A stretch of DNA of 64,000 bases from Podarcis gaigeae (taxonomy: Eukaryota), in the NCBI GenBank assembly GCA_964106915.2, contig OZ066920.1; one strand, given 5' to 3'. Both the position numbers and the translations under genes were made by a program. Below are positions 28,300 through 62,263 of this stretch, in pieces (within the stretch, counting starts at the first letter, position 1; every line of letters starts with the position of its first letter). The notes under the pieces are model-generated. The model did no database searches. It had not been told where the DNA came from and saw nothing but the letters and a program-made list of their open reading frames with translations.

Positions 28300-28900
28300 T
28301 ATTTAAGCCCGTGCTTAAGTTTTCGCTCGTGTCATCCTTGGTGGAGCACGTTCGCGGATGTCAAGTCAGTTACTAATGAGCTAAACAATTGCGCCTAGCA
28401 ATTAGCCTCCCGGTAATTAAATCGCATTTATGGGATTAACGCCCCGCGGTTCGAAACAAAGCTGAGACATGATAGGGAAATGCGTGCGTCCCGAAGCCTC
28501 GGCTGGATCCGAATCGCCTCTTGTTTGCTTTGAAATCAGACAAAGGATGCGGACAAGAATGTCAATTTCCCGAGACGCCTCTCCTTTAAATGCCGCGCCG
28601 TTTCCAGCGAGGCCAAGCGCCGCTTTCGCCTCCTTCTCCTGCGACCAGATACCAGAGGCGATGGGGGGCAATAAACCGGGAGATCTCTGTTTTGCAGGCT
28701 ACTTATTACTTCTTCCGGCTGATAAAAACTTTTACTTTCCACTAATTTCACGGCGGGGACCGCGAGGGAGGCTGCGGGGGGAGGGGGCAAGAAATGTCAA
28801 CACAGAACTTCCCGGGAAGACGCGAAAGTTGATTCAAACGGAAAACGAGGAAGTTGGGATTGTGAGAAAGAAAACGGTTCCACTGTAGGAGGAAGAGCGA
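28300..28900. promoter_or_regulatory. Orphan CpG island with a homeodomain/SOX/FOX/TCF motif cluster
   Basis: CpG density rises abruptly here. Motifs: AACAAT 28384, TAATTA 28414, GGATTA 28433, TGTTTGC 28522, CTTTGAA 28528. Confidence 0.45.
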
Positions 28901-30041
28901 TAAGGAAAGGAGAATTAACAGCGGCTGTTTCTCCGGGGAGACAGAGCCTCTTTCCGATGGACTTCTTGCCCAGTATCTCCAACGATCTCCGCTAGGATGG
29001 AAGCAATCATTTAAAGCAAACGACTCTTCTGGCTGAGAAATGAAGGGTACGGTCCAGCCATGGCTGAGCATTTTCAATTGCCGAGGCGCTCAGTGGAAGA
29101 GAGAAGCAAGCGTCTCCGTGCCTCCCAACGAAATCGGCTGAGACGTGCAGCCCGATCCTATGCGTGTCTCTTCAAGCAAATCTCGCCGGATTCCACGCAG
29201 GTCGCTCCCAAGTTAGGGTGACAGGACGTGGAGAGTGTTGACTTGCGCCCCAAAAGGCATTGCGATTAAAACACCATAGAACTCTAATAACAAAATGGTG
29301 CGGAAATCTAGACGTCATTAAACCGTTCTCAATTCAGCCGAGATGTTAGGTTTCGTTGTGAACTTTGAGCGCTGTGGAGGATCTGTCTGAATCCCTCCCA
29401 GGCCCGTGTCAAAGGAGAGCCCAAGCTTCCATAAGAGATGCATGGATCGGGAAACAGCAGGCCGGGAGGAGGGCTTTGGCACTTCCTCGCCCTTTCCCAG
29501 CGCAGGTCACGAAGACAGATGGAGCCAAAGCGTGGTTACTGGGTTGCACGAGCGCGAGCGCTGCAGAATGCGGATTCATTGACCCCTGCACACCTGGGCC
29601 TTGACCCGCGCGGCCTTGGCTCGTCATTGAGTTGCGGGGCTGGTTTTCAAAAAGGGAATTTGGAGGATAGGTTTATGGTCAGTTACAAGTCACAGTGGTG
29701 AGTAAAGGGATCCTGCCACAGGCAGAGGCAGAGCCAGACTGAGGCAAATGGCAGGCTTGCCCGCTCATGGGGGGCATCTGATGAGCCCCCGCTGGAAGAG
29801 CCAGCAAAGCCACCCCTCTTCTGCTCCCAGGGTTAAAGGAGGAATAAAGGACAACCTTCCTTCCCCCGCGGGGCCTTCCAACACCTTCGTCTGAGTGCAT
29901 TCTAATCTGCGTGGAAGACTGATTCACACAACTCAGGGTGGGCATAAAACCGATTAATTACATCGCAGGAAGAGAGAAATCACCTCCTAAATGCCTCTTC
30001 CTGGGGCGACATTATGCGTGTAGAGCAGTCTTCCTTTAAAA

Positions 30042-34394: not shown

Positions 34395-34572
34395 CAGGGG
34401 TGCCAACTTGAATAAATAAATTAGCGGGGGCAGGTAAGCTCCATCCCGCATAATTGATCACATAATTATGCACACGCACACTATTTGAATGGCAATGCCA
34501 ATCAACTGGGGGGAGCGGGCCCCTCAAATATTTTATTGGGGGGGCTGGGTCTTCATAGGAATTGGCTCCTAT
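34395..34572. mobile_element. Old hAT-like MITE (related copies at ~5640-5748 and ~60803-60997)
   Basis: The copies share gccaacttga...gatcaca...atttgaatggca.tgcc.atcaact.ggggga...ctcaaatattt...gaattggctcctat. Confidence 0.65.
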
Positions 34573-40630: not shown

Positions 40631-43600
40631 GGTCCCAAGCGTGTGTCTTCCCCACCCCCACACCAGTGTTTCCTTATCCCCAATAAATGTTGTTGCTGTT
40701 TTGCCCGGCCCCCAAGTCCAAGAAACTTCTGGGGCACCCAAGGGACTTGCCCTGTTTACGAAAGGGTGGCGGCAAAAGATGCAAGATGCGAAAAGGAAGA
40801 AGGTTTTGGGTGCCCAACTCAGAGCTTGCGGCCGCCCTTGGGGGCTGGTGGGTTTGCCTTTAAGAAAGGAGAGAAGGGAGGGGGCGAAAGTGAGGAGTGT
40901 GACTTTCTTATCAAAGTGCGGGAAATGTCATTTTCTTTGTGCTTTGATGTCTGGTTGTCTTTCAGCCCATCCTTGCATGTCATTACCAGACTCCCAACAG
41001 AGAAAGAGGTGTGGGGCTTTTTTTGGTTTGGTTTTGTTTTGATGGGAAGTAAAGAAAAGAGTTGGTGGGGGGAGGAGAAGACGAGGATAAAATAGGGATG
41101 CACAATTAGATGATTTCTGCCCTTCTATTACAGCGGTGAATGGCAGAATTCTTGACAGAGTAGCGAACCGGCGGGTCTATTCTTAACTGGTTGAGTTAAC
41201 ATATACGGGTGTAAAGCGCCAGGGGCGGGCGGGCGGGCGGGCGGGTGAGGTTTCTTGTTATTTCCCCCCTCAGGTCTTTTTCCTTTAGAGAAAGTCGAGT
41301 TCTGAAGCAATTTCATCCGTTAAAAAAAGGAAAGGAAAGGGGAAATAGTCTGTTAGATCAATATTGAAGCAATGTTGCATGAAACCAAGTCAGGATTAGT
41401 CCAGGGAGCCACGTTGTTTCTGTGGGTCCAATTCAGCCACCCCAAATCCCAAAATATTGCTAGTCTCGCAGATTTCCAAAGAACTAAATCCCCTCCAGTT
41501 GGGTGCAAGTTTACCCGATCAAAACCGTGATGAATTTCAGTTCAGATCAGTGGAGCTGACTCCTCAGTTAGGACACTTGCTTGGGAGTAAACTCGGTTGA
41601 GCATAGAGGAGTCTACGTCTGCGTAAGCATGCATAGTATGGGGCTGCAAAGCTGCAGTCCTTCTTCACCCACTAACCTGCGACTATTGACCTCAAGAGGC
41701 ATTGCATTTTTGAGTCCATATGCTTACCTGGGGCTAAGCCCAATTCCACGGGGTTTCCTCCTGAGTAAACACGCATCAGTAGAGGCTGCGTGTCAGTTCG
41801 ACTTCTCTTTCCAGAAAAGGTTTTAAATGTTCGAGACTGCAAAGCTGCCTAGCTAATCCCCTGACAGCCGAGCTTTCTGTATACATGGCATTAAAACACA
41901 TTGAGGCAGCGCAGCCGCAACGCTCTTTTCTCCTTCAGGATTAATAGGTGTTCTGGACACTTGGACTTAGGGTGAGATGTGTTGAAAAGGAAATAAGACT
42001 CATAAACCTCTATGAAAGTTTGAATCGCTGGATAATGAAGAGAACAGGACTCCTGCACCTTCAGTTGCTCCACAGAAAAGGGAAATTTACTAACTATAGG
42101 TTGCATGATAAACCATAGCAGCTGAAATGTCCTCTCTCATGCAGCAATTAAAGGGCACGAGCGCTGCCTTCTTGGTTCACCTGACCATTCTTATTACTAG
42201 GGAAGTGCATCCCACTGAAATCCATCTAACTTGCCTCGAAAAAACTGCGTTTCCCATCTGGGGTGCGTCTTTTGTGATTCAGGGAACTCCTTCTTTGCCA
42301 AAATCTTCCGCCACCTTACGGTGCCGCGCCGGGTCCTCAAAAGGAGATTCCTAGGGGTGTGTGTGCTGTGGGGGTTTGGGGTTACCCTGAACTGTTCATC
42401 GAGGAAAGTCTCCAGGCAGTTAAAGAGGGTCAAACGCTGCTTACACTTGTGCCACCTAAACAGAGAAGAGCAGGAGGCCGAGGGGCATCGGCCGGGAGAT
42501 GGACAAGGAGGGGAGTCCTGAGGACGGAATGGACTAAACTGCCCTAAGGAGGGAGGCGGTAGCTTTCCGCTTTATAGACAATGCTGGACACGGTTGCCAT
42601 AGCGGCGGCCAGGACGCCTCAGCGTATGGATGCTTCTTAACGCAGCAACAAGGGCGCAGGGGGGCACCGAGGAGGAGCGGGGCCGGGGACGCAGAGGGGA
42701 GTCGGGGGGCCTCGTCCTCCTATCCCATCTACGGTTAGCTAGACGAAAAAAGGCGCAGCGCGCTTTCTGGGTCTTGGTTGATCCACGTCGCCTTTGCAAC
42801 TAAGCGCCCTCCGCCTCTGGAATGCAGCGTCGGATTGTTCCTTTGGTGGATGGAATGGAAACGTTTCTTTACAATCAGCCTAGACGTTCCCACCCCCTTC
42901 CTTGTTCTACCCCCCTTGCAAAATGCTGCCTTGCGAGCTCTTAACCCTCATTGTATGTCTTCTGTGCCTGTCTTGCCCCTCCTAGGCGCGCCTCGCGCCT
43001 CTCGCCTCTAAATTTAGGACAGGGTTCAACTAAAGATAGGCTCCCGGATCCATCTTCTACCACAGCAGGAGATATTTGAGAGATCTGGTTCTCTTTGGCT
43101 TGAATGGGGCAGAGGCGCAGCATCCGGTACTTGTAGGCCCCCTGGCTATCTCCGCCGCCCCCCACCAAAAATGCTCTAAACTGACCTCTTGAAGCCTCCG
43201 TGCTTACAAGTGCTTACCTTTGGCTTGGAAGTAAAATTGGGGGGAGGGGAATGAAATTTAGATGGTAAACTCCTTGGGGCGGGGACCTAATCCCCTTTGC
43301 TTATGTGACTCTCGGCTATGTGACTCTTGGTCGCCATCACATTATGGCGTAAGGGTTAAAAGGACGTGAGGGGGGGTGCCGAACCACAGTTTGCTTTAGT
43401 TCCCTCCAGAACTAGAGGGGATTTCTAAAATGAATAGCTCTGTGGTGTCTTCTGCCTTGACAGCTCTGCCTACTCCACCTCACGCGCCAATCCTCGGTAT
43501 GCTAGATGCTGGTTGTGATTATTCAGTTCCTAGAAAAAACAGCACTCTGAACATACCCAGAAGTGATGTGAGCATGTTCCAGAGCGGAGCCGTGAGACTG

Positions 43601-46219
43601 GGCCCAAATTCAATAATTCGCTGAATTGTCCGAATTCCATTTTATTAATAATCATTAAAAAGGCCGGTGGGGGGATGTTGCCAGCCCTGCTGCTGTGCGT
43701 TTAAACTGCAGCCTGGCGCAGTGAATTTTAGCGAAGTTTCTTGGTCTGGCTGCACAGGAGCAGTAAAAGAAAATGTTGGCAATCTTGCTTCGAAGGGGAG
43801 ATTGGTTTCTGCCTAGACGAAGTATGTTTACTATTTATGCACTCATTTTCCTTTTTAAAAAAATCTGGCCAAAAGAAAGATAAGGATCGGAAACACAAAA
43901 TTGCCCTTTTGGCAGATTAAATCTATTTCCAAGCGTCGGCTCCTGGCGCTTTCTGCAAGCCTCTCGCCCGACTCTGAAGAAGCTGCACCTTGCCTGCCTG
44001 ACCGCCTATCCCAGACACTGAGCGCCTCTTCCAGCTGAGATCAGGCTGCCTGAGCTTCGTGGAGACGAGGCTGGAGGTGATTTTCTTCCCTCAGCCCTCT
44101 ATCGAAAGACCCGAAGGGAAGGACGTGGATAGACACTCATTTAATGACAAGTAATTGACAAATCCGAGAGGCCGCATTACGAGTGGTCTAGGGGAGTATT
44201 AATTATTGAAAAACCATTAGCCTCTGTGTGTGTCCTGCAGAGATCCCATCTTGTTCGGGAAATATAAGCTGTCACGTCAGTTTAGATGGAGGGGAAATCA
44301 GATGAGGAACTCCTCCCCCTCCCTCTCTCCGCCGCAAGCCCCACCCGGAGGGAAACCGAGACGGCAGCGCCAGCGCACAGGCTTCCCACCGAGGAGACCT
44401 CTCGCTTTCTTTCCCGAAGTAACTCCTCTGGCTCTGCTCGCCTTTCCCCCGACGCTGCCTTGGATGGCGTTAAAGAGGGAGGGGGAAAGGCCTTGCAAGA
44501 GAAGGTCACCGAGGCAAGGAGAGTCAAATCCACGGAGGAGATATGGCGTGTCGCTCCACTTTTTCCTAAAATGCCGCCCCCCCCCCCAAATAGAGATTAC
44601 GATACAGAAAACAGCTTATCCCCTCTATATCTGATGTTCTGAGGGGCAGAGATTGGTCGACCAATTTAAAAGCTACTGAAAGACGTGGGTCCTAGCTGAG
44701 GTTTTGGGAGAACATTACGACTTCACTTCAGTTTTGTATCTGTAAAATGGGGGGAGGGGTCTTTAATAAAGATATATGATAAATGGGCAAAGGGAGCAAA
44801 AGCCGAAGTTAATCTCCTTCAAGTCAACGTTGCCTGAATATGCTTGGCTGGGCTGGACTGAATCTCGCCCTTGTTGCCCGAGCTTTCCCCCGTGCTCAAA
44901 GCTCTTTACCACTCATCTCTCCGTTACTACACAACGTGCGACCTTCGGGTGGTGTTGTGGGGCAGAAATAATTCCAAAGCACTTTTCACACACGCACACA
45001 AATTGAAAAATGCACATTTAACTCTCTTTTTTAACCAGAGCTACTTCGCAAAGTGGTGTAGAAAATTTGGAAATGCAACCGCCCTGCCCAGGGATCATGG
45101 CGGCTTCGCGCCAAAGGTTCGCTTCTCTGTACTGTATAAGAAAGAACACGATCCAGCGGGAAGTTCTGAGCAAGCCGAATCGGAATGAATGAGAAATGGG
45201 CAAAGGTAGCGCAGACAGGAGGACTTCTCGGTGCGCAGCTGAGAGTCACAGTGCATTGCAGACTACGCATTGCCCCAAAGGCCCACGTGTCCAGGGGTTG
45301 CGACCTCAGGCTTCCGCAGCCACACAACTGTCCCATGAGCCGCCTCCATCCCGTTCAAGTCCTTTGCAGTCTTGGGAATTTCGGCTTAAAAAACCCAATT
45401 TTTAAGAAGTTTTGTAACTCTTTTCAAGCCATTTCCCTGCAGTGTGATCCTATGCCGGCTTACTTGGAAGAAAGTCCAAATGTCCTCATCTGGGCTCACT
45501 CCCAGGTAAGCCTGCACAGCGTGGCGTCCTGCTGCTTCTGAAGCATCAAGGAAGGGAGGAAGGAAGGAGTCGGCGGAGGGCGGGTGGCTGGCGCAGAAGC
45601 CGAGAAGAAGAGCACAGCTGTTAAGACCCGCCAGCTGCTCCGAACGTCAACAAGGTCGATTCCAAAAAAGGGAGAGGCGAGGCGGGTAAAAAAGCTCGCA
45701 TCTCCCAAGCAAAAGAAAAACCTGCTGGATCAGGCCCAACGGCCCGCCAGAAAGCCCACTGAGCTCAGTGGCACTTGCTTCCGAGTAAGCCTGCATACTC
45801 ATGCTGCATGATAAGCCAGCACCTCTCTCTCATCCACTTTTTCTGTTCCGCACCCACTTCTTCCCACAACTCCAGCCAGTAAAACTTAAAGAGCCCAGGA
45901 GGCCGCTTGAGAATCAGCTCGCCAGGACCTTTAGGGGACGATCCCGGCTTCCCGATAACTATGGGGCAGCCCCCAGCTCACATTCCTCCGCTGGGGAGGA
46001 AGGTTTCTCGTAGCCACGGGGAACCTAACGAACATTTTTAATCTGCGGTTCTGGGGTCGGGGGAGATGACCCCTCCCCCCCTCCTCTAGGCCTGATTCTG
46101 ACCGGGGATCAGCAGCAGGTAGGAATCAGGCAAGACTCTCAGCTGCTTCTCCCGCCCGCTGCCAGCAGCGCAAAACAACAACGACGCGCACCAGCACCAC
46201 CAAACTTAAAAGTCCCTAC

Positions 46220-46435
46220 CTGATGCCCTGGAGCTGCCGGTGGCAGAAGCGACGGCGACGAGCCCAGACGCCCCGCTGACTGCAGCTCGGCGGCAAGGCA
46301 TCGCGGCATTTATTGGAGCGACTGTTGACTTTAGCACAAAGCAAAGATTTCACTGCCCGCTAGTTTAAAAATGAATATTTTACCAAGATATCGATCAGCG
46401 TTATAAAATTCAGTTAAGCACAATGGCTCGAAAGG
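46220..46435 (-). ncRNA. Candidate promoter and first exon of a LINC00261/DEANR1-like lncRNA downstream of FOXA2
   Basis: A unique AT-rich block inside a CpG island, with FOXA TGTTGACTTT (46323-46332), ONECUT ATCGAT (46390-46395) and TATA-like motifs, followed by a minus-strand donor CAG|GTAGGG at 46220/46219. Position and orientation match the mammalian lncRNA. No transcript evidence is available here. Confidence 0.45.
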
Positions 46436-47307
46436 AGCAGAGAAAACACACGCACACGCATGCACGCACACGTACACACAGGCAGCAGCATTCCTAATAT
46501 CTGTGTAAATTTGCTGAAGAATGACGTGCTGCGTGAAGTATACCTCCTGGAATTTGGCGTTAAATATTTATTTATTTTGTTGTTGTTGTTGTTAGTTTAC
46601 TGGTTTTGCCTATTCGCAGATGGCGGGGACTTAAATCACCAGCGGTTCAAAAAAATAACGGAAGGTGGGGTTGAATGAGGAAGGCAGACCGTGTGGTCCT
46701 TTGCAAAGCGACCCGGATCGAACGCGTGAAGAGGAAGTGAAGAGACCCCGACTCTAAAGGACATCTACACGCGCGCACACATTCCTCCCTCTCTCTTTTG
46801 CTTTTTGAAAAGGTCTTTTGGCAGAGGTATACATCTTATCGCTCGGGATCAACGGAGTGGGAGACAACTAAGTAGTTTAAAACGACCGCAGGCGCGATGG
46901 GACCGGCCAGGTTAGAGCATCACATTCGCGTCCCATTGTCCGCGCAATCGCTGCCATTCCAGGCCTCCATTCTTCTGCGCGACGGGAGCCTTTTATGTGG
47001 TAATGAACACACATTTTCCGCTTTGCTTCACAACGTGTGTGTCCTCGCGGGACACAGGCGGGCGGCGGGGAAGCGCGGCCGAATGGGGCCTCTCCACCCA
47101 CAGGCCTGTTTTTTAAAAGGTGCCTTTTGGGGGCCCCCAGTCTTCCCGAAAAAACAATGAGGGGGGATTTGAGAGGGATTCGCAAGTTTAGATCACTTCT
47201 TAAATCTATTAAAGTTGTGCGGGGGGTGGGGGTGGGCGAGGAGTGGACAGACTGTTGTCCGGAGCGAAAGCAATTGATATTTTATTTAAATAAATACATA
47301 TGTCTTC

Positions 47308-47377
47308 AAATAAACAAACAAACAAATAAATAAATAAATAAATAAATAATAACTAACTAACTAACCAACCAAATAAA
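47308..47377. repeat. Compound (AAAC)/(AAAT)/(AACT)n repeat
   Basis: Seen directly. Confidence 0.9.
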
Positions 47378-48299
47378 GCTGCTTCGACGATGCAGCCTGA
47401 ATTAATAAAATTAGAATGTGGGGAAAAGGTTGGCCGACGGGCCAGCTTTCTATGCCCTAGAGAAAAATATTGACGATCACATTTTAATTTATTTTTGGAT
47501 TTCAAAAAGCAATCGCGTCGCCTCCTGCAGATGGAATCTGAGGCCTGAAGAGGGAAGAGTCGAGAGAGGTGTGATCACTAAGGTGCAGATGACCAAAGTT
47601 TTGATATGATATGACGGATAGACAGGCAAATATTAGGGCAGAAGAGAAATTTACTAGTAGTCTTCAGTCTGAAGGTTCCCTTCATTCCTTTCATGGTAAA
47701 AGAGCATTAACCAGGTTGTTGGAGTAAATGTAAGAAAAAAAAGTTTATTTCTCACATTTCAGGCTAAGCCTTCTACAGCCCTAAGACATTCTGCTGAATA
47801 TCAGGATTCACCATATTTCTAACAGTTACCTTAAATGTACCCGCATCTATAGATCAATATCTATAAATTTGGGCAAACAACTACACAGGTGGAAATACAA
47901 AACTTCACAAACTAGCATCCAGGTAAGAGTGGCACTTTCCTGACAAGGTATGGCTTGCTGCAGCCATCCAGGTGGGCCTGGAGCACCGAGAAGGCTACAT
48001 TTATGAGAGCCGGGTGAGGTTTTATGGGCCGGTTTTTGTTTTGTTTAAATGCAACTGTGTTACAGTATTTCTCAAGTTTGGGTTCATGGTGTCAAGTCAT
48101 TTACACCTGCTTTGCATTTAGTCAAAAATTCCAGCAGTAAAACTGAAGCACTCAAATGTCAAATCTTCCCCAAAACAGGGAACCTGTGCACCAACTGGGC
48201 TAAGCCACTGAAGGTCTGCCAAATTCCCCTTTACAGTCAGCTTTCCTGCAGAGTTACTTAGAAGAAGTTGGTCATCACCTCACTGGAAATAATTTGTTC

Positions 48300-48465
48300 A
48301 ACCAGGCCTTGGGCTGATTAACACTCTATGGTTTTTTAAAATGTGTTTGTGGGAGGGGGTGCTTATTTGTTCTTGTTTGTTTTATTGTGTATTTTGTATT
48401 TTCATGTTGTGAACTGCCCTGTGATCTTTGGAAGCAGAGGAGTATATAAATTTGATTAATGATGA
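48300..48465 (+). mobile_element. L2 LINE 3' end fragment
   Basis: Reverse complement of the 25985-26180 family (gtgaactgccctgtgatc...tataaattt). Confidence 0.65.
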
Positions 48466-50750
48466 GGATGATGTCAATTAAAACAAGTAGGGGCATACTC
48501 CCCAGAAAGTTTACTGGCAGATATATGTATATTGTTCTGTCTGCACTGGAAGGTGAAAACAAACAACTATTACAGGTTATTATTTGTCTATTTATGCCAG
48601 GGTGGCTCATAATAATTTTGGGAGGTTAGGGCAAATGAAAATTTGACTCCACACAAGTTAAAAAGTGATGGCGGTGGAAATCTGTAAATTACTTGATTCT
48701 GTATGTTGGAGATGTACACTAGAACAACCTGGATCCATGTGGTGCTGTCACATTTGGTGGTACTGCAAAAGTGTGAGCAGGCTTTGGATTGGAGTAAAAC
48801 CAGTGGGACTTACTCCCAATGGCATTTTCTAAAGAGGGTCATAATCCTCCACAGGCTAAGAGCAGACTTTATGTATAGTCGACTTGAAGACTATGGAAGA
48901 CTACTGGAACACCAGCCGCTGGCGTGTCTCGACTGGCACCATAGAGGTACATTTCCAGGGGTTAGGAAAGTTAAATCTGTGGTGTTTGATTTGCAGAGGT
49001 TCGCAAATATGAAGGGGTCCTCCCCACTTTCTGAAGAAGAAGACGATTATTTCCAAAAGGCGATCTTATTAAATTCCGTGAGAATTACTTCCAAGTAGAG
49101 ATGTAGCTTCCAAGCCCTGAGAAAGAGATGCTTTTTCTGAAATAGTTCTATGCACCAAGTTTGCTACTGTTCGTTCTCTCGTGTGCGCCACACATCACTG
49201 TCTCCTCCGACGCCCACACATTTGTCAGGGAAGGATTTCACCTGCAAGTGAGTGTTGTATATGAAACAACCTTTAGCGAGAACGCAATCGGATACTGATC
49301 TTTCAGAATGCACTCCGGAGGAAGCTGGAAGGATGCTATAGAGCTCTCATTTGCTTCCCATCCATTTATTCGTGCAGCAAATGACCCCCTGCGAAATGAG
49401 TTTCCGGATCCTAAACATATCCAGTTTAAAAGCCACATGTTCTGTTTATACATCCCACTTTAACCAACCACCTTTAGACTCCCAGCCCTATAATTACCGG
49501 TACCTACCTGGAAGACCCATTGAACTCAGTGGGATTTGACATATGTAGGATTGGAATGCAAACGTTCAGCAGAACTGCATTGTGCGAAGCGCTCTCTTTA
49601 ATGAATTTACGCGGCGCCCTAAGCTTAATTACTCGGAGGACGACTCATTTCCGTTAAAAACTGAAATTCTATGCATGTTTCTTCTGATGGCGTTCAGACT
49701 ACCGGTAACTTCTGAACAAACATGCAAAGGGCAGGATGGGCTACAATCCTAGCAAGACTTTCTGGTAAGTCCCAATGAACTCCACGAATGGGGTCGGGCT
49801 GCTCTGTGGGAAGGGGATAAACGTTGCCAATTGTGTATTAAAATAGCACCTTGTCCTAAATCGTATTTATTCACGTGAAGAACGTTTCACCAAATTCAGG
49901 AGAGGGGTTCTTCTTTCTCTCTCTCTTAAAATAAGTTTGCAACTCTAAAGACTGCAGGGACCAAGGCTTCAAAAACTCACATACTGATCTGGGAGCAAGT
50001 CCCACTGATTTAAAGGACACTTATTTGTAGAAGATGATATTTAGTGGCGCTCTCTTTGAGTAACTGTGCTTAGAACCTTTGTTCATCTGAGCTCCAGTCA
50101 GGGAGCATTGGAAGAAGATCTCAACTGGATTCACGCAAGCGCTTGCCTGAATGCATGTAATGGAATCTTTGAGGTGGTAAGAAAGAGTTGCTGTGGTCCG
50201 AGTGGAGGCCACAGTCCGCACATGCAAGTCGTCACATGATGAACGGAATCAAAGCCAATCCTTCACTTCTAAATAGACGTCTGAGTAAAGGTTTCCGTAC
50301 GCTCTGTGCATCCATCCATTAGGCTGCCCTATTTTGCATTTTCCTCCTTTTGTTCGCGCTCCAAGTGAAATGTCTCAGAACATCAGTCTCGCGCCCTACA
50401 GATGTGGCAGAGGCAGAGCACAGTGGCTAGCAAAAAAGAAAAAGAAACAAAAACCCCCTCAACCAATACGTGTTTATTCGGTAGCGAATTGCCTGACATT
50501 CAGTGGACCTTACTCCCCGGTAAGTACTCATATCCGAGCAGCCTGAGGTAGGGATGAGGACCTCCCCTCTTATTTCTGCCCTGAATTCCTTAAGTGGCAA
50601 CTTGTGATGTTAGGATAATACTGACCTAGCTTGCCAAGCTGGTGTGAGGATTACAAGACAGAGTATTATGTGAACTGCTTTAGAAACTCTAAAGTTCTGC
50701 TAGAGGACTGGGGTTAAACTATTGAGTTATGCGCCACCGGCGGTTTCTGC

Positions 50751-50972
50751 CGTTTGGAGTGTGAGTGCCTTGGACGATGGCCTGGGAGACCAGGGCCAGA
50801 ATCCTACTCAGCCGTGAAGCTCCCTGGGGGACCTTGGGCCAGCCACTCCCACTCAGCCTAACCTGCCTCACAGGGTTGCTGTGTGGCCAAAGGGGGGGGG
50901 GGGAGCCATGCTCACCACCTTGAGCTCCTTGGAGGACAAGGTGGCATATGAATGTAGTAAATAATAATAAAT
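50751..50972 (+). mobile_element. tRNA/CORE-type SINE with an L2-like tail (Squam3/MIR-like)
   Basis: ctgggagaccagggccagaatcc...accttgggccag...cagcctaacctgcctcacagggttgctgtg...gagctccttggag...(AAT)n. Confidence 0.75.
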
Positions 50973-52816
50973 AAGAAACGAAGTTTTGTTTGACTTCCGT
51001 TGGCCAGGTAATCTTCTCTACCTGAGTCTAGTTGGAAACCTTAGGATTCAACCGAGGTTAGTTCCCATGAACTGACCATGAACCCTACACCTGCTTCTTG
51101 GGAAGGATGCCCCGCTTATTCCAAGTGGATCGATTCCCCATCCAGTGAGCCTTCGCTGGAAGCCGTCCCTCTCCTAACCAGGCTCAGTGCTGCGTCTTTG
51201 AGGTCCTGCTAAGCTATGCCCTCGAAAGGCCAACACAAAAACCCCCTTCCTAGGGGGGAACGAGCATCAAATGTCTTCCTTCCGGATGAGCCTTCTGAGC
51301 AATGGCGCGCTGCAGCCTGGCTAGAGGTGCGGCACAACGCGTAGCTCGCGTACTCAGAAGTAAGTCCTCCGCAATTCAATAGGTCTTACTTCCAAGTAAG
51401 TATCATAAGATATTCAAAAGCCATTGAAGACCTTACTCCTGAGTAAAATGTGCATAAGGTGACGCGCATCAGTTTCACTGAAAATCAGTGAAATTCTTAC
51501 AATACTCCGAAGTTAAACTTACCGTTTTCAACTGTTTTCAGGATCGGTGTGAAAGGGAAGAATATAGTTGGCTGGTTCGAGATCCACCCCCGTCCACCAC
51601 AGGACTGCGCGATAGTGCTTGTAGTCAGTCGAGAAAATCCACTCTGGAGTTTCATTTGGACTCGGCAAGCGAAGGGAAGCTCGTAACTCCCCTTCGCCTT
51701 CTGACCAGCTCCTGCCACAGGCAAGGCCTCTCGTGTGTATGTGTTGTCACTGTTGCGTGTGTGTTGTGCGCAGATTTCTGCATGAGCAAGATGGGGACTG
51801 ATTGGAATCCCATTTACTCATCCCGGTTCTCGCGTCGCTAAGAGTCTCCAAAGAGGAGCCCCGACGTTTATCCAAAGACGACTTAGAGGAAGAAGACAGG
51901 CCTTCTCAGTGAATACGGCTCTGGAGGGCGGACAGAAGAGGAGGAATATAGGAGCATCGAGCTTTCAAACAACTTCCGAATTGCCCAGCATTAGGTTAAA
52001 GCCGTCCTTCTTGCTAACTGCGTTTCAAGTAAGCTAGAACCCAAATCTTTAAAGAAAAAGAAGCTAGAATTCATCTAACCAATTTGTTTTAAAAGTCCCG
52101 AAACTCTTAACCCAACTAGGCGTGTTTTGGTTTCCACTAGGCGCTTGAGGCTTCGCGCGCTTTCTCTGATGCAGAGAAAGGTTCTAGCAAGCCACACTCA
52201 GTTCATTATGAAAGGCAAGAGTAGTCTCGGTTGATGATAGTCAACGTTCCTCGTACTCAAGAGTAGACCCACTGAAACCAATGGTTTATGCTTTTCAAGC
52301 CGCCACCTCCCGCTTGGAGTATCATAATGTGGCTTTAATAGTAGTTGTACTTCAGGATTGCTATATTGGCTGCGATTGTGTGGAACGCGAGGCTGAATAG
52401 CAGGTACAGTCAAAGATGAAGCACTTTTAAGGCCGGAGATTGAATGAGATATGCGGTTAACATTATAAGTGAAATCAATGAGTCATAAAAATACTTTGGC
52501 TGAATACTGTGCTGTTATGTAAATGATTCCACCATTATCATGATGCCCAGATGTCGAGAATACCCCTTTTAACAGAGGTTGCAATCCTAGTCATGGACGG
52601 GAGTCAGCGGGGATGTCTAGGCAAGTATAACTCGTGGGAGCCTACCCGATTGCAAATGTGTAAGGTAACCGATGGGCTTTCCTATCAAGTAATGTTCACA
52701 GGATCAAATAAACAAAGCAATATTTAAAGTCAAGCAGGCAAAGCAATCATATACATACATAGAATAGGCAGCATCTATATATATAGGCCTCGACTAAGAG
52801 CCTAACAACCCAGTAA

Positions 52817-52878
52817 CAGAATCATAGCATTGCAGAGTTGGAAGGGACCACGTGGGTCATCTAATCCAATCTCTGCCA
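52817..52878 (-). mobile_element. Short CR1 3'-tail fragment
   Basis: agaatcatagcattgcagagttggaagggacc...ggtcatctaatcc. Confidence 0.65.
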
Positions 52879-53529
52879 ACAAGAAAGACCCTATTTTCAG
52901 TCCGACTTGTCCTAGGACTTCCATGGGCTGCAACTCAGGGAGTTGGCAGACTTTAGGCTTTTCTGATCTATTTTGCTTTTTACTAGAATCCCAAGATCTA
53001 TCAACCAGATTCTAGTGCCTCTGAGCCCATTCCGGGCCTAGGAGTTGGTCTGCAGTATCAGAACTGAGCTCACAACCCCAAAACAACCCCCCAACCCCCT
53101 TCATTTCAGCAGTTTACTTTGGACGAAGCAGGAAGTAATTTTGCTAAACAGTTGGGAGTCTGAAACCAAACTGCTTGTGAATCTAGTGCATGTCAGGCAA
53201 AGATTTACCATAGATTCAGCTCTGTCTTTACTTGAGAATAAAGTGTATATTTGGGAGTAAGGTTGCAGTCTTATTCACAGTTTAGACGAGGAATGGTAAG
53301 CGTGCCAACAAGATTTGATGATGTATGAAACATGATACTCCAAGTTCATATGTGCATTTTAAATACGCATGTTATTCATACAGGCCATCTTGGAGAGGGC
53401 CTACTCTAAGCACAGTAAGCCCATTGGCAAGCAATATCAAGAGCTAAAATTAGTTCGTTATCTTTCCCGCATCTCTTTGCATTATACTAGAAAATAACAG
53501 ACAGGTATTATTGTTTAAGTTAAGAAAGG

Positions 53530-54462
53530 GGGAAAAAATCTCCAACAGCAATTTAATATATGGTTTGTGAGAATTTGGTCGGTCCTTACCAGAATACACA
53601 TCTATAAACCATAAATAAAGCGTACAAAAACGATAAATTAATTCGATCGGAGTCGTTTACTCTCCCGGTAACATCAAAACTTCCTGTGTCAAATTACAAT
53701 CTAAAGTCCATTTTTGGGTACCCCCCTCCCCCGAGTTCATACAGCCTTTTTGATCCTCAGTTTTGAAATCTAACACCGGTTCACACACACACTTATTTCT
53801 GTGTCACTTTCACACCCAAAAATAGATATATTTATAACTCCCCGCAACAAACAAAATAAAGAAACAGACAAGGAGACTCCTAAAAGGAAACCTCCAACTC
53901 AAATAAAATTTAAATCGGTGTCTGAAGAAAAGTGACGGTGGTCAAGAGCCGAAGCCCACGGAACTGGATGTTTTCCACGCCCCACGGTTGTTGGAGATCA
54001 ATCCTGTTTTCCCGACGCCGGCGAGAAAAGAGTAGAAGAAAAATGAGCTTTAAATTACACAACAGCAAACGTCGATTGAATATTACGGGAGCCTTTTCTA
54101 AACTAGGAGCGGGGCGCGAAGTCCAGGATTCTTTGCCAAAAGTGGTGCGCGGGAGAGATGGGGTCAGTGCGCTCCTCATAGAAAGTTCTCTTTTTCATTT
54201 AAAAAATAGGGCTAGAGAATCTTTAGTTGATACAAAGGCGCCGGAGCTCCCAGGTAGTGGGTGGAGGCCACCGGATTGTTTTAGTCCGATGGGCTTTGGA
54301 TATGGATTGGGATCGGGAGGCGACGCCGTGGAATAAACTGACCTGGCTTTGGATTCTTTCCAAAGTCTACATCATATCTCAAATCTCCTCCTGCCCAGAG
54401 AAGTCTCGGGTTTGTCCTGGGGAGAGAAAGAGGGCATTGGCCCTTGGGGGGTGGGATGCCCT
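53530..54462 (-). other. FOXA2: FOXA2 3'UTR (distal end approximate)
   Basis: Follows the stop codon, is AU-rich in its distal part, and ends near a candidate ATTAAA. Confidence 0.6.
53552..53557 (-). terminator. Candidate FOXA2 polyadenylation signal ATTAAA
   Basis: The minus strand reads ccatatATTAAAttgctgttggagattttttcccccttt, with a GU/U-rich downstream element. Confidence 0.55.
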
Positions 54463-55746
54463 TTAGGAAGAGTTCATGATGGGCCTGGGGTAGACCCCTT
54501 GGTAATAGGAGGCGTCTCCGGCCAAGGGCGAGGTCTCCAGGGCGCTTTTGTTCGTGACGGAGCCCATGGCCAGGCTGCCGGGCACCGGCGAGCCGTAGCT
54601 GCTGTAGTGCATCACCTGCTCATAGGCTTTGAGGTCCATTTTGTGGTGCGGGTGGTGCGGGTGGTGCGGGTGGGGGTGGTGCTGGTGCGGATGGTGCGGA
54701 TGGTGGGGGTGCTGCTGCTGCTGCTGCTGCTCTGTGGAGGACATCAGGTTGGTGATGGAGAAGGGGTGGTTGAAGGCGTAATGGTGCTCCGCCTTGAGGT
54801 GCGCCTCGTGGGAGAGCCCCGCGTGGGCGTGATGCTGCGCCAGCAGGTGCTGCTGCTGCGCCGGCGACGGGGCAGGCTCCGGGTGGCCCTTCAGGTCGGC
54901 CAGGGCGCGCTTGTGCTCGTGGCAAGGGGAGGCGCTGGAGTGCGGCGATTCCGGAGCCCCGTTGGGCAGGTCGCGTTCCTGCGGCGCCTGCGAGGCCGCC
55001 TTCTTACCTTGCGACGGGGCTCCCGCCGACGAGGCAGGCGAGGCGCCCTGATTCTGCTGCTGCTGCTGCTGTTTGGAGCCCAGCGGCTTGTCGCACTTGA
55101 AGCGCTTCTGGCGCCGCAGGTAGCAGCCGTTCTCGAACATGTTGCCCGAGTCCGGGTGCAGAGTCCAGAAGGAGCCTTTGCCCGGCTTGTCCGGCGAGCG
55201 CGGNNNNNNNNNNNNNNNNNNNNNNNNNNNNNNNNNNNNNNNNNNNNNNNNNNNNNNNNNNNNNNNNNNNNNNNNNNNNNNNNNNNNNNNNNNNNNNNNN
55301 NNNNNNNNNNNNNNNNNNNNNNNNNNNNNNNNNNNNNNNNNNNNNNNNNNNGCCATGGTGATGAGGGAGATGTACGAGTAAGGCGGCTTGGCGTGCGTGT
55401 AGCTCCGGCGATAGCTCTTGGCGTCGCGGGAGCGGCCCAGGCCCGCCGCTTGTCCGTACGCGCCGCTGCCGCCGGCCCCGACGGGACTCAGCGCCGAGTA
55501 AGCGCCCAGCGCGCCCCCCATCGAGCCGGCCTGCGCGCCCAGCGGGCTCAGGCTGGGGCTCAGGTGCGCTGCCATGCTGGCCATGGCCCCCGCGCCGGGA
55601 GAGAGGTTCATGCCCGCCGGGCCGGCCGCGTAAGACATGCCCATGGAGCCGCCGGACGCCACCGTCGTCATGTTGCCCGCCGTGCCCATGGCTGGCATGC
55701 TCATGTAGCTGTTCATGCCCAGCCCCGCGTTCATGGTGGAGTAACC
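54463..55746 (-). CDS. FOXA2: FOXA2 last coding exon: forkhead domain (partly N-masked), eh1/region II, C-terminal region III, TAA stop
   Basis: The acceptor tttgcag|GGT at 55747/55746 is in frame with the previous exon. The ORF has [19 protein letters not shown]...[60 protein letters not shown] and [14 protein letters not shown]. The GSFW forkhead variant and the C-terminus indicate FOXA2 rather than FOXA1 or FOXA3. Confidence 0.97.
55204..55351. other. 148-nt run of N inside the forkhead-coding sequence
   Basis: Seen directly; the reading frame is preserved across it. Confidence 0.99.
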
Positions 55747-56633
55747 CTGCAAAGGCGACAAGAGCGGGGAGCCCAGCGGTTAGAGGAGGTGGCCCACCTG
55801 TCTCCCACCCGAGACCCACAACTCCCTGGCCACGGGATGGTGGGCAACCCAGCCCTCAGCCCCAACCACCGCATATTTCGAGGGAGCTTTCTTTGGTGTA
55901 ACGGTCTCCTTCGGAGTCTGTGTGATACAATGGAAGGTGAAAGTACCCAGCGCCCCAGTGAACATGGTGCAGGCACTCTTGGCCCCTTGAATTTAAATGG
56001 AAGGCTACAGCAGGTGCTTGAATCTGGGGGGCAGTTAAATTGAAACCGGTCAGATTTACATCCGAGTAAACACGGTCCGGAAGCTGTACGCCGGCTCCCT
56101 GGCCAATAAAGCGAGATGAGCGCCGCAACCCCAGAGTCGGTCACGACTAGACCTAGTAGTCAGGGGTCGCTTTATCTTTACCTTAAACACGGGAGAGAAT
56201 CGGCTTGTAAATCTCGCCAAATACAATTTAAAAAGTGGCAGGGGGAGCGCCTAACTTAGACTCGATCGTGTCTATGGTTAGGATAGGGGTCCAAGCATTG
56301 CAAACTTGGATACCAAATGCGCTAAGCTGATACAGGTCTCAGTGAAATCGATGACATACAAAACAACAACAACAACAACAGGACAAAGTCGACCAGTCTG
56401 GTCATAACAGTATTCCTGCACCCTCATTTTAAAAATTCCCGTTGGCTTTAATGAGCCTTTGCCCAAGTAACGTGTTTCTTATTGCGATGGAAGAAAAGTA
56501 GGACCCAGGTGGGTGTTTAAAATATTTCCTTGTTCGTTGGCCGGGGAATTGTTCCTGTTAAAACCCAAATGCTAATGCAAATCTACCAGAAAGCAAGCCC
56601 GCTCTCTACCGCACACACTTTCCGGGTCTAACC

Positions 56634-56721
56634 GTGCAATCCTATGCTTGCTTACTCAGAAGTAAACCCCACTGTGTTTCGCGGGACTCACCCCCAGCTA
56701 AGCGCGCAGAGGATTAGAGCC
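56634..56721. mobile_element. Representative copy of a ~90-bp palindromic MITE (PIF/Harbinger-like), in the FOXA2 intron
   Basis: gtgcaatcctatgcttgcttactcagaagtaaaccccactg...gggactcacccccagctaagcgcgcagaggattagagcc; many degenerate copies occur in the window. Confidence 0.65.
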
Positions 56722-57443
56722 TCAGACCCCCATATCTGACTCCCCCGAAGCCTTAGCGATTCTCTTGGGTTTCAATGCAATTTACTTCCCAAGTCACTTG
56801 TGTTATAGTTTCTTAACCCAATAGAAGCCGGGTCCATCAAAACGACTCGATAGAATTTGTGTTTCGTTTCGGTAGGATTCGATTTCAACCCGAATTTCTC
56901 ATACACTGTCTAGGGAATATCCGTCGTGATCTTCCGACAACTTTGTTTCTTTACTGCGGGGGAGGATTGCATCGAAATCACTCGGGGGTCAAGACCTCAG
57001 CCCTAGGCAGAATTAAGCGCCATGGAAATCGGTGTGGGGGCTCTGTTCAAAATCCAAGGCTAAAAATGGGGCTGACGGCTCCAGGAGGGAACCTGAAATG
57101 TGATTTGACTCAAGGAGGGAAAAGATCTCGGTTGTCAAGATCCGGCTGGTTTCTGGAGCAAAGGAAGGAGGCACGCAACCTGGAGAGCGGCAGGAGCTTG
57201 TGCGTAAAGCTTTGCTCCGCTCATTCAAGAAAGAATTCTTGTCCGGCTTTGGGTTTCATTTGCCCCCAGACTCCGAGCCCTCCCAGGGCGAGATTTCGAG
57301 CAATAAATGCGCCCCCTCTTCCCCAGGTTCCTTATAGCTCCCCCCTCAAACGCCCTTCCTCTTCCCCCCCCCCAACCTCTCTCTGCCAAACACAACTTTG
57401 TTAGGATAGCGCGGCTAGGCATGGCAAAGGATTTGGAGGCTTC

Positions 57444-57506
57444 GCAAGTCAATATTTGATCACAAAGTTAATATTATCTCAAGGCTAACACAGTGTTGTA
57501 TAAAAA
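57444..57506. promoter_or_regulatory. Intronic FOXA/HNF1-type element
   Basis: AAGTCAATATTTG (57446-57458, overlapping forkhead sites) lies next to GTTAATATTA (57467-57476, HNF1-like), ~200 bp inside the intron. Confidence 0.6.
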
Positions 57507-57650
57507 GAGGGCGAGAGGGAGAGAGGGAGAGAGAGAGTCCTGTTTTTTAGCGGAAGGAGGAGGCTTGGGGATTGGGTGGGGGACCCACACACAAACAGAG
57601 AGAGCGAGAGAGACACCCACTCACGCAAACAGACAGAAGTTGCCATTTAC

Positions 57651-57737
57651 CTCCGGCTCGCCGTAGTAGTTGCTCCACTCCGTGTGCTCGTGTCCTTCCA
57701 TTTTCACGACTCCTAGCATACTGGAAGCGGAGTGCAT
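57651..57737 (-). CDS. FOXA2: FOXA2 first coding exon ([29 protein letters not shown]); ATG at 57737, alternative in-frame ATG at 57719
   Basis: My translation of the reverse complement matches the FOXA2 N-terminus (mammalian [23 protein letters not shown]). The exon is 87 nt and ends at a phase-0 donor GAG|GTAAAT (GT at 57650-57649). Confidence 0.95.
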
Positions 57738-58200
57738 GGCAGTTTAAAATTTAACAGCCACAACAAGCGACGACAGAGGGAGAGAGAGCAATCCAAAAAA
57801 AGGGGGGGGGAGAGAAAAGGAAAACACCCTCCTCTATAGCCCTCCCTCCTTCTCCTTGCCTCGTTCCCTCTCTCCCTCTCCCTCCCTCCCTTCTCCCTCC
57901 CTCTTTCCTTCCTTCCTTCCTTCCCTCCCTCCCTCCCTCCTTCTTCCCCCTCCCTCTATGTGTGTTTTGGGGGAGGGGGAGGGTGGGCTCGCTTTGCGTG
58001 GGGTTTCTCCCTGCCCGCTATTGCTGCTGCCGTTGCCGCTGCTACTACTACTGCTTGGGTGGGTTTCGCTGAGAAGAGTTGCCCGGAGGCGAAGGCAAGG
58101 AGGAGGAGGAGGAGGAGGAGGGTGGAAGGAGGAGGAGGAAACGAAGTGGTGCAGTGACGTGGGTGCCGGAGTGATATAGCAGCCAGAGGCCAGGCTAGCC
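57738..58200 (-). promoter_or_regulatory. FOXA2: FOXA2 proximal promoter and 5'UTR of the long (MHSASS) isoform
   Basis: Contains ttgttgtggctgttaaattttaaactgccATG, a GA-rich purine tract (57845-57955), TATA-like gcTATATc (~58174-58179) and a CRE/E-box-like TGACGTGG (58155-58162); CpG-rich. Confidence 0.65.
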
Positions 58201-59346
58201 TCCAATCCCCAGGACCTAGGCAGGCGATTTGAATAATCAGCTCCCACCTAGGGCTCTCCTCGCCAAGACGCCGGCTGCTGCCCTTGAGCACCCGTGGGCG
58301 CAACCTGGGGGGAGGCTTTTTGCCCCCGGACTAAAATCACCTTCTTATGCTATACCCTGGTCATGAATCTGGAAGGACTACCTCCCGGTTTCCTACTGAC
58401 TTGGATAGTTTCAGTACTCTAGTTCACCCATCCGCACGCCTCCAGGCCGTGCTGCTGAAGAACATTTCTACGGTTGCTTTCATGTTTTGCGGTGGATTGC
58501 TCAGAGGGGGCTGACCCTATATATCTAGGGATTTTATGTTACGATCGTCATCAACAATCACAACAAACATCTTCCTCCAAGGAACTTGCGAGGTTGAATA
58601 GAAATGCTTTAAATGTATGTATGCACACAATATAGTCAAACCAGGCACGCAGTTCGTTGATTACTATGGGGATTTAGACGCTTGCTTAAGGTTGCGCAGT
58701 CCTATGCACACTTAGTAGGTGGTCCTATTGGAATGTGTAGAATGTATAGGATTGAAATCAATAGGGCTGAAAAGTGCATGCCTTAAACTAGATCGCACCA
58801 TAGGCAGAGAAAAGAAATAAAGTTGATGCTTTAACCATGGTCTGTTTCTTCAGAAGGTAACTAAGGAAACCTCCGGCAGCCACAGTCCAGACTTTCGACT
58901 TCGGTTGAAATGCTTGGATTTCAAAAATTCCAGAGGAACTAGGCTGATAGTAATCACATTGGCCTAGCCATCCACTTCCCAAACTATTCGCTTGGCATAA
59001 AGGGCGGACGGGGGTCGTAAGGAAGGCATTTCATTTCCCCAGTTCTAACTCTGCTAAAGATTTCAATAGAAGATTGATTGGTTCGCTGACAGCTAAAATG
59101 GAACCTCTGTGCTCAAGAGCAGTATATCTTTGAGTACCTACTGCTCTAGGCTAGACAACCAACAGGAAATGGCGTCAGAAACAGAATGCAGCAAAGCAGT
59201 TCTGCCGCGGCCCCCTTGCGCTCCTGGCCATCCGGAAGGGCCTCGCGCCCTGGGCATCCACCGCCGCCCCCGACCTGCCTTCAGAGCAGGCGGCCAGCAG
59301 GAGCTCGCCGGGTGTACCCGGCACCCTAGGGGTGACCCATCGCCAA

Positions 59347-59368
59347 CATTTCCTAACTAAAACAAACC
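59347..59368 (-). promoter_or_regulatory. Candidate upstream (exon-1) FOXA2 promoter element GGTTTGTTTTAGTTAGGAAATG
   Basis: Resembles the rodent HNF-3beta promoter FOXA/C/EBP element TGTTTGTTTTAGTTACGAAATG (recalled, not aligned). It lies in a CpG island ~1.6 kb upstream of the ATG. Confidence 0.5.
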
Positions 59369-59995
59369 GCCTCACGCAGCTGGGCTAGTGCGAAATGTTC
59401 CAGGCGAACCGCTGAAGAAAGACTGGCAGGGACTCGGTCGGCCAACCGCACTGAGGCGCCTTGGCAGCGAGCGCCAGCGCAGGAGCCGGCGCGGGCGAAG
59501 AAAGGAACAGGCAGGCGACCCCAGAGCAAAGGGCTTCAGCGGATTGAGGGAACCAGCTTTGAGCCGGCAGGTCGGCCTCACGGAGACCTTAGCCCGGCGA
59601 CGTTCAAGGGGCCCGAGGCTCCAGGATCGCCACAGTCAACTCTGCTGGCTTCCAGGAGAAAAACTCTGTTGGCTTTCTAGAGAGCGTGACTCCCCCGGCC
59701 AGATCTGTTGAAATTGTCGGGACGGGAATGTGCTTCGGAGCTGCGCCATCGTCCCGCACGTTTCAGCGTCTCTCTACGTGCGTCTCTCTACGTACAAAGG
59801 TTCCGTGGGACTTGAAAATGCTTAGCGTGGAGTTGCACCCTGTGGTGGGCCGCCAGGCAGTGCCCTCTCTTCCCCCAGAAGCAGCTGAAATGCCCTTTTG
59901 TTTCAGCAGGAGAGAAACGCTCCATCCCTTTCAAATCCGAGGCCTTCAAAGTACCTCGTTCTGGCTGGATCCCGCACTAAAGCATGTAAGCTCTC

Positions 59996-60133
59996 AAGGA
60001 GAGTTGGGGAAACGGATGACCTCCAGGTGTCTGGACTCCAGTTCCCACCATCCCTGACCATTTGCCGAGCGGACAGGTGCTGATGGGAGATGGAGTTCAG
60101 TGTCACCTGCAGCGCCACAAGGTCCCCTCCTTT
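59996..60133. mobile_element. Palindromic hAT-like MITE (related copy at ~32850-32983)
   Basis: ctccaggtgtctggactccagttcccaccatccctgacca...gctgatgggagatggagttcag...cacctgcagcgccacaagg, with an inverted structure. Confidence 0.6.
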
Positions 60134-60802
60134 GATCTAAGATGAAGGCCTGCTGTTCAGGCAGGTCTGGTAGTTTATTCCAGAATTATGATCAAGAGCT
60201 GCTGTCGCCGAGCAGGAAATGTATTGCTCAAAGGCGCTTTTTTCTTATTCCTAGGGAAGTACTACCAGAATCAAGGCTGCGCATGGAAAAGATGCTGGAG
60301 CTTTCTCGGATGAAAGGAGCAAGCGATCCAGGGTTTGCTTTAATGGGGAAATGTTTGCTCTCTTGTTTAAAAGATGGCATTCGTGTGAGCAAGCATGCCA
60401 CTGGGAAGTGAACTCTCCTCGAATGTGACATTAGCGCTTTCTTCCCTTCAAAGCGCTTCGCAGGCGCGCGATCTCAGTCAGAAGTCACCCTATTATAGCA
60501 ATGCTTCCCCGGCGGTTTTAGTGGGCAGGAGGCTGGGTCTTGGCGCGGACCTTTCCCGAGCGCCACCAATCGAGAACTTCCTGGCTCGCTGCTTGATCTC
60601 CCATGCATTCAGTTGGACTTAACTTCCAAAATCAACCTACAGTATTTGGGTTCGTGCGCAAGGAACTTCGGACGGGGGAGGGATTCAGAAACTCACCAAG
60701 CCCTCATCAAAGGGAACTAGTGTTGTTCAAAAATAAAGCAACAATAAGTATTTGTTGCCTTTCTGTTATTTATTTTTAAATACATCACAGCAAAGAATAG
60801 AC

Positions 60803-60997
60803 TAAAGGATACCAACTTGACTAAAACATTGGGAGGACGCGACGGCAGGTAAGTCCCGCCCTGCCTAACCGATCACAAGACTCGGCGCAAGTACACCATT
60901 TGAATGGCAGTGCCCATCAACTTGGGGGAGGACGGCCACCTCAAATATTTAAGGGGGGGCTGAAGGAACGTCGACCCCCTAGGAATTGGCTCCTATG
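60803..60997. mobile_element. Old hAT-like MITE, same family as 34395-34572
   Basis: Colinear similarity with the 34.4-kb copy. Confidence 0.65.
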
Positions 60998-61974
60998 TAT
61001 AGACTCCACTGTGCAGTTCTCTTGCGCGAACCCTTTAAGTGTGGTTTGAAAAGAACAACTACACGTGCGCCGACGTTATCAACCACCTATTGGGGGATCT
61101 TTCCTTTCCTTTAATAATAGGGATCAGTATGTATAGGACATGTGAGCAGCTCCGAGATTTTGATGCTCCTGAAGTGGAATAATTATAAATTGTCTGAAAC
61201 ACTCTGAAAAGCGGATCTCCCCCCCCCCCCCTCCACCACCACCACCGCGCGCGAAGCAGAGCCACTGGATTGGCTGGCTTGTTGGCAGGGCAATTCAGCG
61301 GTTGCATCCATGGGCAGGTGCTGCTTCTGTACCGGGAGCACCGGGAGCTGCAAGGAAAAGGGCGATTCTTCAGAGAGGAATCCCATTTGCCTCCTTCCAT
61401 TGTTCAGACACGGCAGGGCAAAGACGGGCAGGCAAGCAAGCAGCGCTCACTACAATTTGCCAGGTGCCGTCCACTGAAAAGAAGGGAGCCCTGTCTTTTT
61501 CCCCTTACCTGAAAAGCCAGGTCAGTGCCAGCTAGCAAAGGAACGGAGTCCCCCTCTGGTTTTTCTGAAAGGGCCCCTCCACCTCCTCACTCCCTTGCAC
61601 ATCAATGAGACCTGAGGAACCTATAGCCTGTAGCATGGCCCTGCCAAAGCAAGCCTCTGAAACTCAGGGGTCATCTCCACATTTATTTATTTATTTCATA
61701 AAATTGACACACCCCTTGATTTCTTTTTTTAAAAAAACACTCTTCACAAATTGCCTCAGTTTTCTGAGCAGCTGGGTAGGTGCCAATCCCATAAACAATT
61801 TTTTGTTTTTTAGGCCAAGAAGTGTTTTCTTTTGTCTGGCCTAAACTGAATCCCAATTCGCTTCCCTGGTGACCCAGAGCTCTCCTCTCCCAAATTGCCA
61901 CTGTTGCCTTCATGTCCATACCACCCATGTGGCTTCCTGCTGGTTTTATTTATAAAGCCATAAGTTGTCTAGTA

Positions 61975-62263
61975 CAGGTGTGGGCAGAGTTCAAGTTTGT
62001 TGGAACTACATTTTTCCCTTCTTCCTAGAACCCTAGGATCTACCAACCAGAGCCAAGTGTAAAAGAACAGGTGCCTCTGGACACATTCTAAACCTGAACC
62101 TGATCAGTCTTTCCCAACAGAAATCAACTCCTGGTTAGCTCTCCTCATTTCAAGCAGCCTAATTTAGATGGGAGAAGTTATTCAAAAAATTAGTAGCAAG
62201 AAACTATTACCAATCACTCAGAGATCTACCAGTAGACCTAGATCTACCTCCTGCCCAACCCTG
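61975..62263. mobile_element. Old hAT-like MITE
   Basis: Ends caggtgtgggcag / ctgcccaaccctg; degenerate 8-bp TSD gtctagta/gtccagaa. Confidence 0.5.

Follow-up and report, generated by a model that had tools for sequence, protein, structure and literature searches.

A candidate lacertid orthologue of the LINC00261/DEANR1/Falcor promoter and first exon downstream of FOXA2

A minus-strand element at 46200-46440 of the DNA stretch that we analysed (hereafter the window; 64,000 nt of Podarcis gaigeae, assembly GCA_964106915.2, contig OZ066920.1) is, judging from sequence comparison, almost certainly the lacertid orthologue of the promoter and the initial exon of the long noncoding RNA LINC00261/DEANR1/Falcor. 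This identity, put forward in a preliminary description of the same DNA, is supported because the element matches the 5′ end of a human cDNA, is accompanied by a probable second, collinear promoter anchor upstream, and occupies the expected position and strand relative to FOXA2. A LINC00261 5′ match lying ~7 kb behind FOXA2 therefore makes it likely that the same FOXA2-tuning RNA is produced in the lizard. By analogy with mammals, we regard an active, spliced transcript from the element in lizard as very probable, whereas a measurable cis effect of the lncRNA on FOXA2 has, in our estimate, roughly even chances.

Position and identity of the element

The gene upstream of the element is, by protein similarity, lacertid FOXA2 (Table 1). 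Its second coding exon spans about 55746-54463, with the stop at 54463, and the product carries Forkhead_N and HNF_C domains. Over its C-terminal 245 aa, the product shares 98% identity with HNF3-beta of Podarcis raffonei; the same query reached 66-83% identity with FOXA2 of other squamates and about 34-46% with FOXA1 where the whole query aligned. A search of the ESM Atlas with the FOXA2 C-terminus gave forkhead leads alone, all below 0.9. The C-terminal part also contains a His/Pro repeat and poly-Gln runs (54643-54727).

The lncRNA start lies downstream of FOXA2 on the same (minus) strand. Between 52500 and the FOXA2 stop, the sole poly(A)-type hexamer is found at 53557, 7222 bp from 46335, and the earlier estimate of ~7 kb from the FOXA2 end is thus correct. 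This spacing of about 7.2 kb compares with about 2 kb in mammals. The spacer itself (47500-53500), about three times the mammalian length, contains, at 48297-48462, 50781-50967 and 52815-52873, pieces of repeats that recur at other places in the window.

Further repeats are scattered through the locus. An interspersed repeat of ~350 bp, whose copies are 73-80% alike, occurs at 7132-7439, 25213-25565, 26551-26910 and 26946-27322, with a fragment in the FOXA2 intron (56079-56185); presumably it resembles the Sauria SINE of squamates. A 150-bp element present as a 74% identical pair, downstream (34429-34572) and upstream (60844-60996) of FOXA2, is probably a small mobile element. GLI-type 9-mers were located at 40591 (minus), 32343 (plus) and 13871 (plus), the first of them within the CpG-rich domain. 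Mouse Foxa2 possesses a GLI-dependent floor-plate enhancer on its 3′ side, and the site at 40591 could mark the counterpart of that enhancer.

For the human side of the comparison, we used the LINC00261 5′ amplification primer and a synthetic cDNA fragment with mutated start codons (PMC7423336 supplements), and the human-lizard alignment was made by eye. The unbroken 19-nt identity with the start of the LINC00261 cDNA clone bears out the human 5′ sequence given in the preliminary description, and its estimated transcription start (~46340) falls within 5 nt of 46335, the base matching the first base of the human clone. An exact 19-mer match is expected 5e-7 times per window and 0.01 times per 1.5-Gb genome. 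The invariant block is followed by an 11-nt insertion on the human side, after which 9/10 bases match across the AATAAA/ATG block and 22/30 bases match over the ten codons beyond it, the lizard having one codon more. Identity across the first 70 human nt, where the gaps measure 11 and 3 nt, comes to 50/59 columns when the start codons are restored from the published peptide, and to 48/59 when the two mutated start codons are taken as printed. Past roughly 60 nt into the exon, similarity drops.

An oligonucleotide control comprised eight published human oligos compared on both strands with the window and with 100 block shuffles, a 93-base stretch of the proximal promoter being excluded. Probe 1 of the human smFISH set found its best match in the window at 46312-46331, scoring 30 against a maximum of 26 among the shuffles; none of the 100 shuffles was as good by local score, and six were by total matches. 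A ChIP primer matched at 46853-46832, about 500 bp upstream of the start, with 1/100 shuffles as good by local score and 5/100 by total matches; this match is marginal alone after eight tests, yet it lies on the right strand and the right side. It is the single match among the six human ChIP primers. Two of the eight oligos thus beat the shuffles; their matches fall no more than 520 bp from the start and keep the human order and orientation. For the remaining six, 21-100 of the 100 shuffles did equally well, as expected by chance. Among the matches listed by sequence-motif searches of the papers' main texts, all were chance matches, one of them a GREM1 primer, and a 12-mer match in one frog lncRNA row (supplement of PMC5233649, as far as available) was likewise taken as chance.

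Self-BLAST of the window revealed no second copy of the element, no tandem repeats overlapping it were found, and Rfam yielded 0 families at gathering score within 1-46333 and 46427-64000. A search of sequencing runs with 46150-46445 as query (29 words) recovered 20 runs, from 14 studies and under 12 organism labels, containing part of the stretch. Half or more of the stretch is contained in four of these runs. For fourteen, with a share of 0.28-0.38, an RNA origin is no more than a guess, and among the matching runs none is on record as RNA. Because the exon and the conserved promoter core explain the shares equally, run shares were not used as evidence.

Table 1. Coordinates of features at the FOXA2 locus in the window
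Feature	Position	Strand	Basis or remark
FOXA2 (HNF3-beta)	53535-57738	minus	exon-1 ATG 57738, donor after 57651; 3′ end approximate
Putative upstream conserved block, GATA-type core	46832-46853	minus	17/22 to human "LINC00261 promoter 2" ChIP forward primer (PMC7281485)
AT-rich core and proximal promoter	46336-46440	minus	motif scan
Invariant 5′ block, 19 nt	46317-46335	minus	identical to first 19 nt of human LINC00261 cDNA clone
Predicted first exon, 116 nt	46220-46335	minus	5′ end from human match, 3′ end from donor score
AATAAA/ATG block	46307-46316	minus	AATAAA (46314-46309) overlaps first ATG (46309), counterpart of human sORF1 start
sORF1-like frame	46220-46309	minus	open for 30 codons to donor, phase 0
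Second ATG	46301	minus	counterpart of human sORF2 start; open to donor
5′ splice site CAG/GTAGGG	46214-46222	minus	last exon base 46220

Promoter motifs and the predicted first exon

With motif labels assigned by consensus patterns, the CUT/ONECUT, TTATAA, TTTTAAA, forkhead and donor motifs previously named for 46200-46440 are all present at their places. The palindromic CUT/ONECUT-type hexamer (46390-46395) has three sites per 64 kb (six strand-counts), the TTATAA hexamer occupies 46401-46406, and the TTTTAAA heptamer runs along the minus strand from 46370 to 46364. Forkhead-type motifs are common, with 226 strand-counts in the window and 0.85 expected per 240 bp, so that the 7-mer alone is weak evidence.

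Both TATA-like motifs of the preliminary description exist. The sole full match to TATAWAW, a 7-mer at 46402-46408, faces the plus strand, and the weaker minus-strand heptamer, sitting at -35 to -29 from 46335, alone fits the start. The perfect 7-mer was ruled out as a TATA box of the lncRNA, being on the wrong strand for a minus-strand start. It is directed back at the 3′ end of FOXA2, and the first intron holds, at about 46107-46114, a donor-like CAG/GTAGGA on the plus strand; divergent or antisense transcription is one possible explanation of the two, and chance is another.

Base composition agreed in part with the CpG island and the AT-rich block described earlier. The CpG content held up, with 500-bp observed/expected ratios of about 0.9-1.1 across approximately 46200-47300, although GC lies at only 0.43-0.55. 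The AT-rich block exists on a modest scale, with 39% GC at 46300-46399 versus 66% at 46200-46299. The interval 46200-47300 is the high point of an extended CpG-undepleted domain at about 34-61 kb (ratios mostly 0.4-1.0), and the first 24 kb of the window show ratios of mostly 0.05-0.3. Two CpG-undepleted patches, 28000-30000 (0.94 and 0.69) and 24000-27000 (about 0.5), lie 16-22 kb beyond the lncRNA start. They represent a possible enhancer or second promoter, and the patch at 24-27 kb partly reflects young repeats.

The donor reported at 46220/46219 is likewise present. Using a scoring matrix of approximate values, it scored 9.17, in the 99.3rd percentile (top 0.7%) of the 3193 minus-strand GT sites. 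No other such site within 1 kb of the start scores higher, and the FOXA2 exon-1 donor is weaker (8.31). The human cDNA has a CAG at position 133, which equals 116 + 11 + 6, and from this we infer a human exon-1 junction at position 133. The lizard exon, without the 11-nt stretch of the human one, is accordingly predicted at 116 nt, compared with a presumed 133 nt in human. The window yielded no exon 2. A human probe placed immediately 3′ of the putative junction gave no match (78/100 shuffles as good), and downstream exons are not recognisable. The predicted exon folds no better than its shuffles (z -0.92).

The same 116 nt might instead belong to a longer transcript starting at or near FOXA2, as one of its internal exons or as a read-through exon, a reading that we consider highly improbable. 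It could draw on AG dinucleotides that follow a T-rich run on the minus strand (about 46330 and 46323), and on one frog read pair that bridges foxa2 and the lncRNA (PMC5233649). However, the homologous human bases constitute a cDNA 5′ end, a promoter-type block and the probable upstream promoter anchor precede the 116 nt, and in mouse, according to the available text of PMC6546060, read-through was not detected.

Start codons and short open frames in the first exon

New here is the observation that both human sORF1/2 start codons, at the same 8-nt spacing, and part of the sORF1 N-terminus are kept in the lizard. At the sORF1 N-terminus, 7/11 residues are identical to human, three of these despite a change at the third position, and the lizard has an additional codon; the pattern common to the human and lizard frames is M-x-x-C-L-x-x-E-(x)-Q-S-A. 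Among the literature matches listed on LINC00261 microprotein conservation, no report of a non-mammalian sORF1 was found.

These features raise the question of translation. In addition to the shared start codons and residues, the sole indel within the frame is 3 nt long, each of the two frames reaches the end of the presumed exon with a CAG in phase 0 (the human boundary being the putative one at position 133), and human sORF1/2 are reported to carry ribosomes (PMC7423336). The first exon might thus be kept partly through translation, with sORF1 or sORF2 as an old micropeptide or regulatory frame common to lizards and mammals. Taken further, the LINC00261 first exon would be an ancient translated unit, in which sORF1 acts as an amniote-wide micropeptide or as a ribosome-loading element of the FOXA2 locus. 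We consider both proposals unlikely.

Against translation, the open frame was rejected as coding evidence because a 30-codon frame is equally open in 58% of shuffles; the corresponding figures are 71% for the second frame and 40% for both, and 11/30 nearby ATGs are open for as many codons. In this very small sample, four of ten codons change the amino acid, and beyond about residue 14 no similarity is left. The context of the first ATG is weak, with T at -3, and this ATG lies inside the AATAAATG block, which may persist for other reasons. Among proteins of 30-98 aa no relative emerged, since the 56-aa unspliced frame returned one candidate and none at E<=10; a Pfam search with this frame gave no family, and there are no stop-to-stop frames of 150 aa overlapping 41096-54336. 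On the human side, the available parts of PMC7423336 describe sORF1/2 as merely visually identified, endocrine differentiation as largely unchanged after single-sORF frameshifts, and PhyloCSF as low for almost all new sORFs. sORF1 is currently filed as poorly conserved; if the translated reading were true, the two 5′ AUGs, the N-terminal pattern given above and the phase-0 donor would have been kept since the lizard-mammal split.

Proposed mechanism and comparison with known systems

Like human LINC00261/DEANR1/FOXA2-DS-S and mouse Falcor (9030622O22Rik, LL35), the lizard element is located downstream of FOXA2 on the same strand, and with human LINC00261 it shares the first 19 nt, both 5′ AUGs and, probably, an upstream promoter block. 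It differs in orientation from HASTER, which is reportedly antisense to HNF1A and has its promoter as the active part: the lizard element is same-strand as FOXA2. Its conservation is limited to the promoter and first exon, as in the mouse/human description, where promoter, start and first exon are reported to be conserved to Xenopus, zebrafish and tetraodon, not lamprey, with a poorly conserved body (PMC6546060). In Xenopus tropicalis, embryo RNA-seq contains a foxa2-adjacent lncRNA (PMC5233649), likewise placing the arrangement before the amniotes, by position and not by sequence. The tapRNAs (PMC5853149), which like HASTER are positionally conserved lncRNAs next to developmental transcription factors, offer a similar picture, with a conserved promoter, a body that is not conserved, binding by the neighbour's product and a proposed dosage feedback.

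By orthologue number, LINC00261 is reported to rank first of 26 lncRNAs in a 17-species set (PMC8253100) that includes lizard (PMC5225574), and a lizard orthologue may already be listed in Hezroni 2015 or in Fig. S1B of PMC8253100. The accessible portions of PMC11282827 and PMC5225574 contain nothing on the LINC00261 locus. Among the matches listed from open-access literature, no paper on a squamate orthologue appeared.

By analogy with mammals, FOXA, ONECUT and GATA factors would bind the promoter, Pol II would start near 46335-46340, and the 116-nt exon would be spliced to later exons too diverged to be recognised. Because the invariant 19 nt place a forkhead-type site (46323-46329, at about +7 to +13) on the start, FOXA2 could make the promoter accessible and also, when abundant, hinder initiation, such that FOXA2 dosage would feed back on the lncRNA start site. 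This dual action would fit the opposite signs reported, namely repression in mouse lung, where Foxa2 represses Falcor (PMC6546060), and activation in human liver and pancreas lines. The human promoter is described as occupied by FOXA1, FOXA2, HNF4A and HNF6 (PMC5853149), and in PANC-1 cells FOXA2 binds and activates it in ChIP and luciferase assays (PMC7281485). Overall, we think it probable that the lizard orthologue is transcribed in endoderm tissues, is spliced at 46220 and fine-tunes FOXA2 in cis.

Cis feedback of the lncRNA on FOXA2 is, however, disputed in mammals. Promoter deletion is reported to lower Foxa2 by 25-30% (PMC6546060), and LINC00261 knockdown to lower FOXA2 in Huh7 and A549 cells (PMC5853149). 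Conversely, LINC00261 deletion in human ES-derived endoderm and pancreatic progenitors is described as leaving FOXA2 unchanged, with a trans role proposed (PMC7423336), and moderate LINC00261 knockdown in lung cancer lines as occurring without a FOXA2 decrease (PMC6468413).

The human deletion result, with no cis effect and a trans role proposed, also suits a possible but less favoured explanation, in which the element is a true orthologue kept as DNA, serving as a FOXA2 3′ enhancer or loop anchor, while any RNA would be incidental or confined to a role in trans. This differs from our preferred reading in mechanism, not in identity. The fading of conservation after about 60 nt of exon, the lack of matches for 6/8 oligos, the ordinary fold of the exon and the nature of the invariant block as a factor-binding motif are all compatible with it. 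Conversely, the best-conserved block starts exactly at the first base of the human RNA, the top-ranked donor follows at the matching distance, the mouse promoter region is reported to be H3K4me3-high and H3K4me1-low (PMC6546060), and it is knockdown of the RNA that lowers FOXA2 in the human lines.

The promoter, start and first donor, and with them the act of transcribing and splicing, seem to be under stronger selection than the body of the RNA. Given the conserved start, forkhead-type site and strong donor, the most likely way for the unit to work is by regulated transcription and splicing beside FOXA2. FALCOR is reported to bind the U1 protein SNRNP70 (supplement legend of PMC6546060).

The lizard element is mostly confirmation, and modest as a discovery, because deep conservation of the promoter and first exon has already been reported to reach fish (PMC6546060). 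The bases kept at this lncRNA, whose mode of action is disputed, comprise the 19-nt start block with its forkhead-type site, the AATAAA/ATG overlap, the second ATG and the strong donor, probably together with the GATA-type block 500 bp upstream. Lizards and mammals diverged more than 300 million years ago, and the bases kept between them offer a small number of mutation targets with which the contributions of the DNA element, transcription and splicing, the RNA and translation could be separated.
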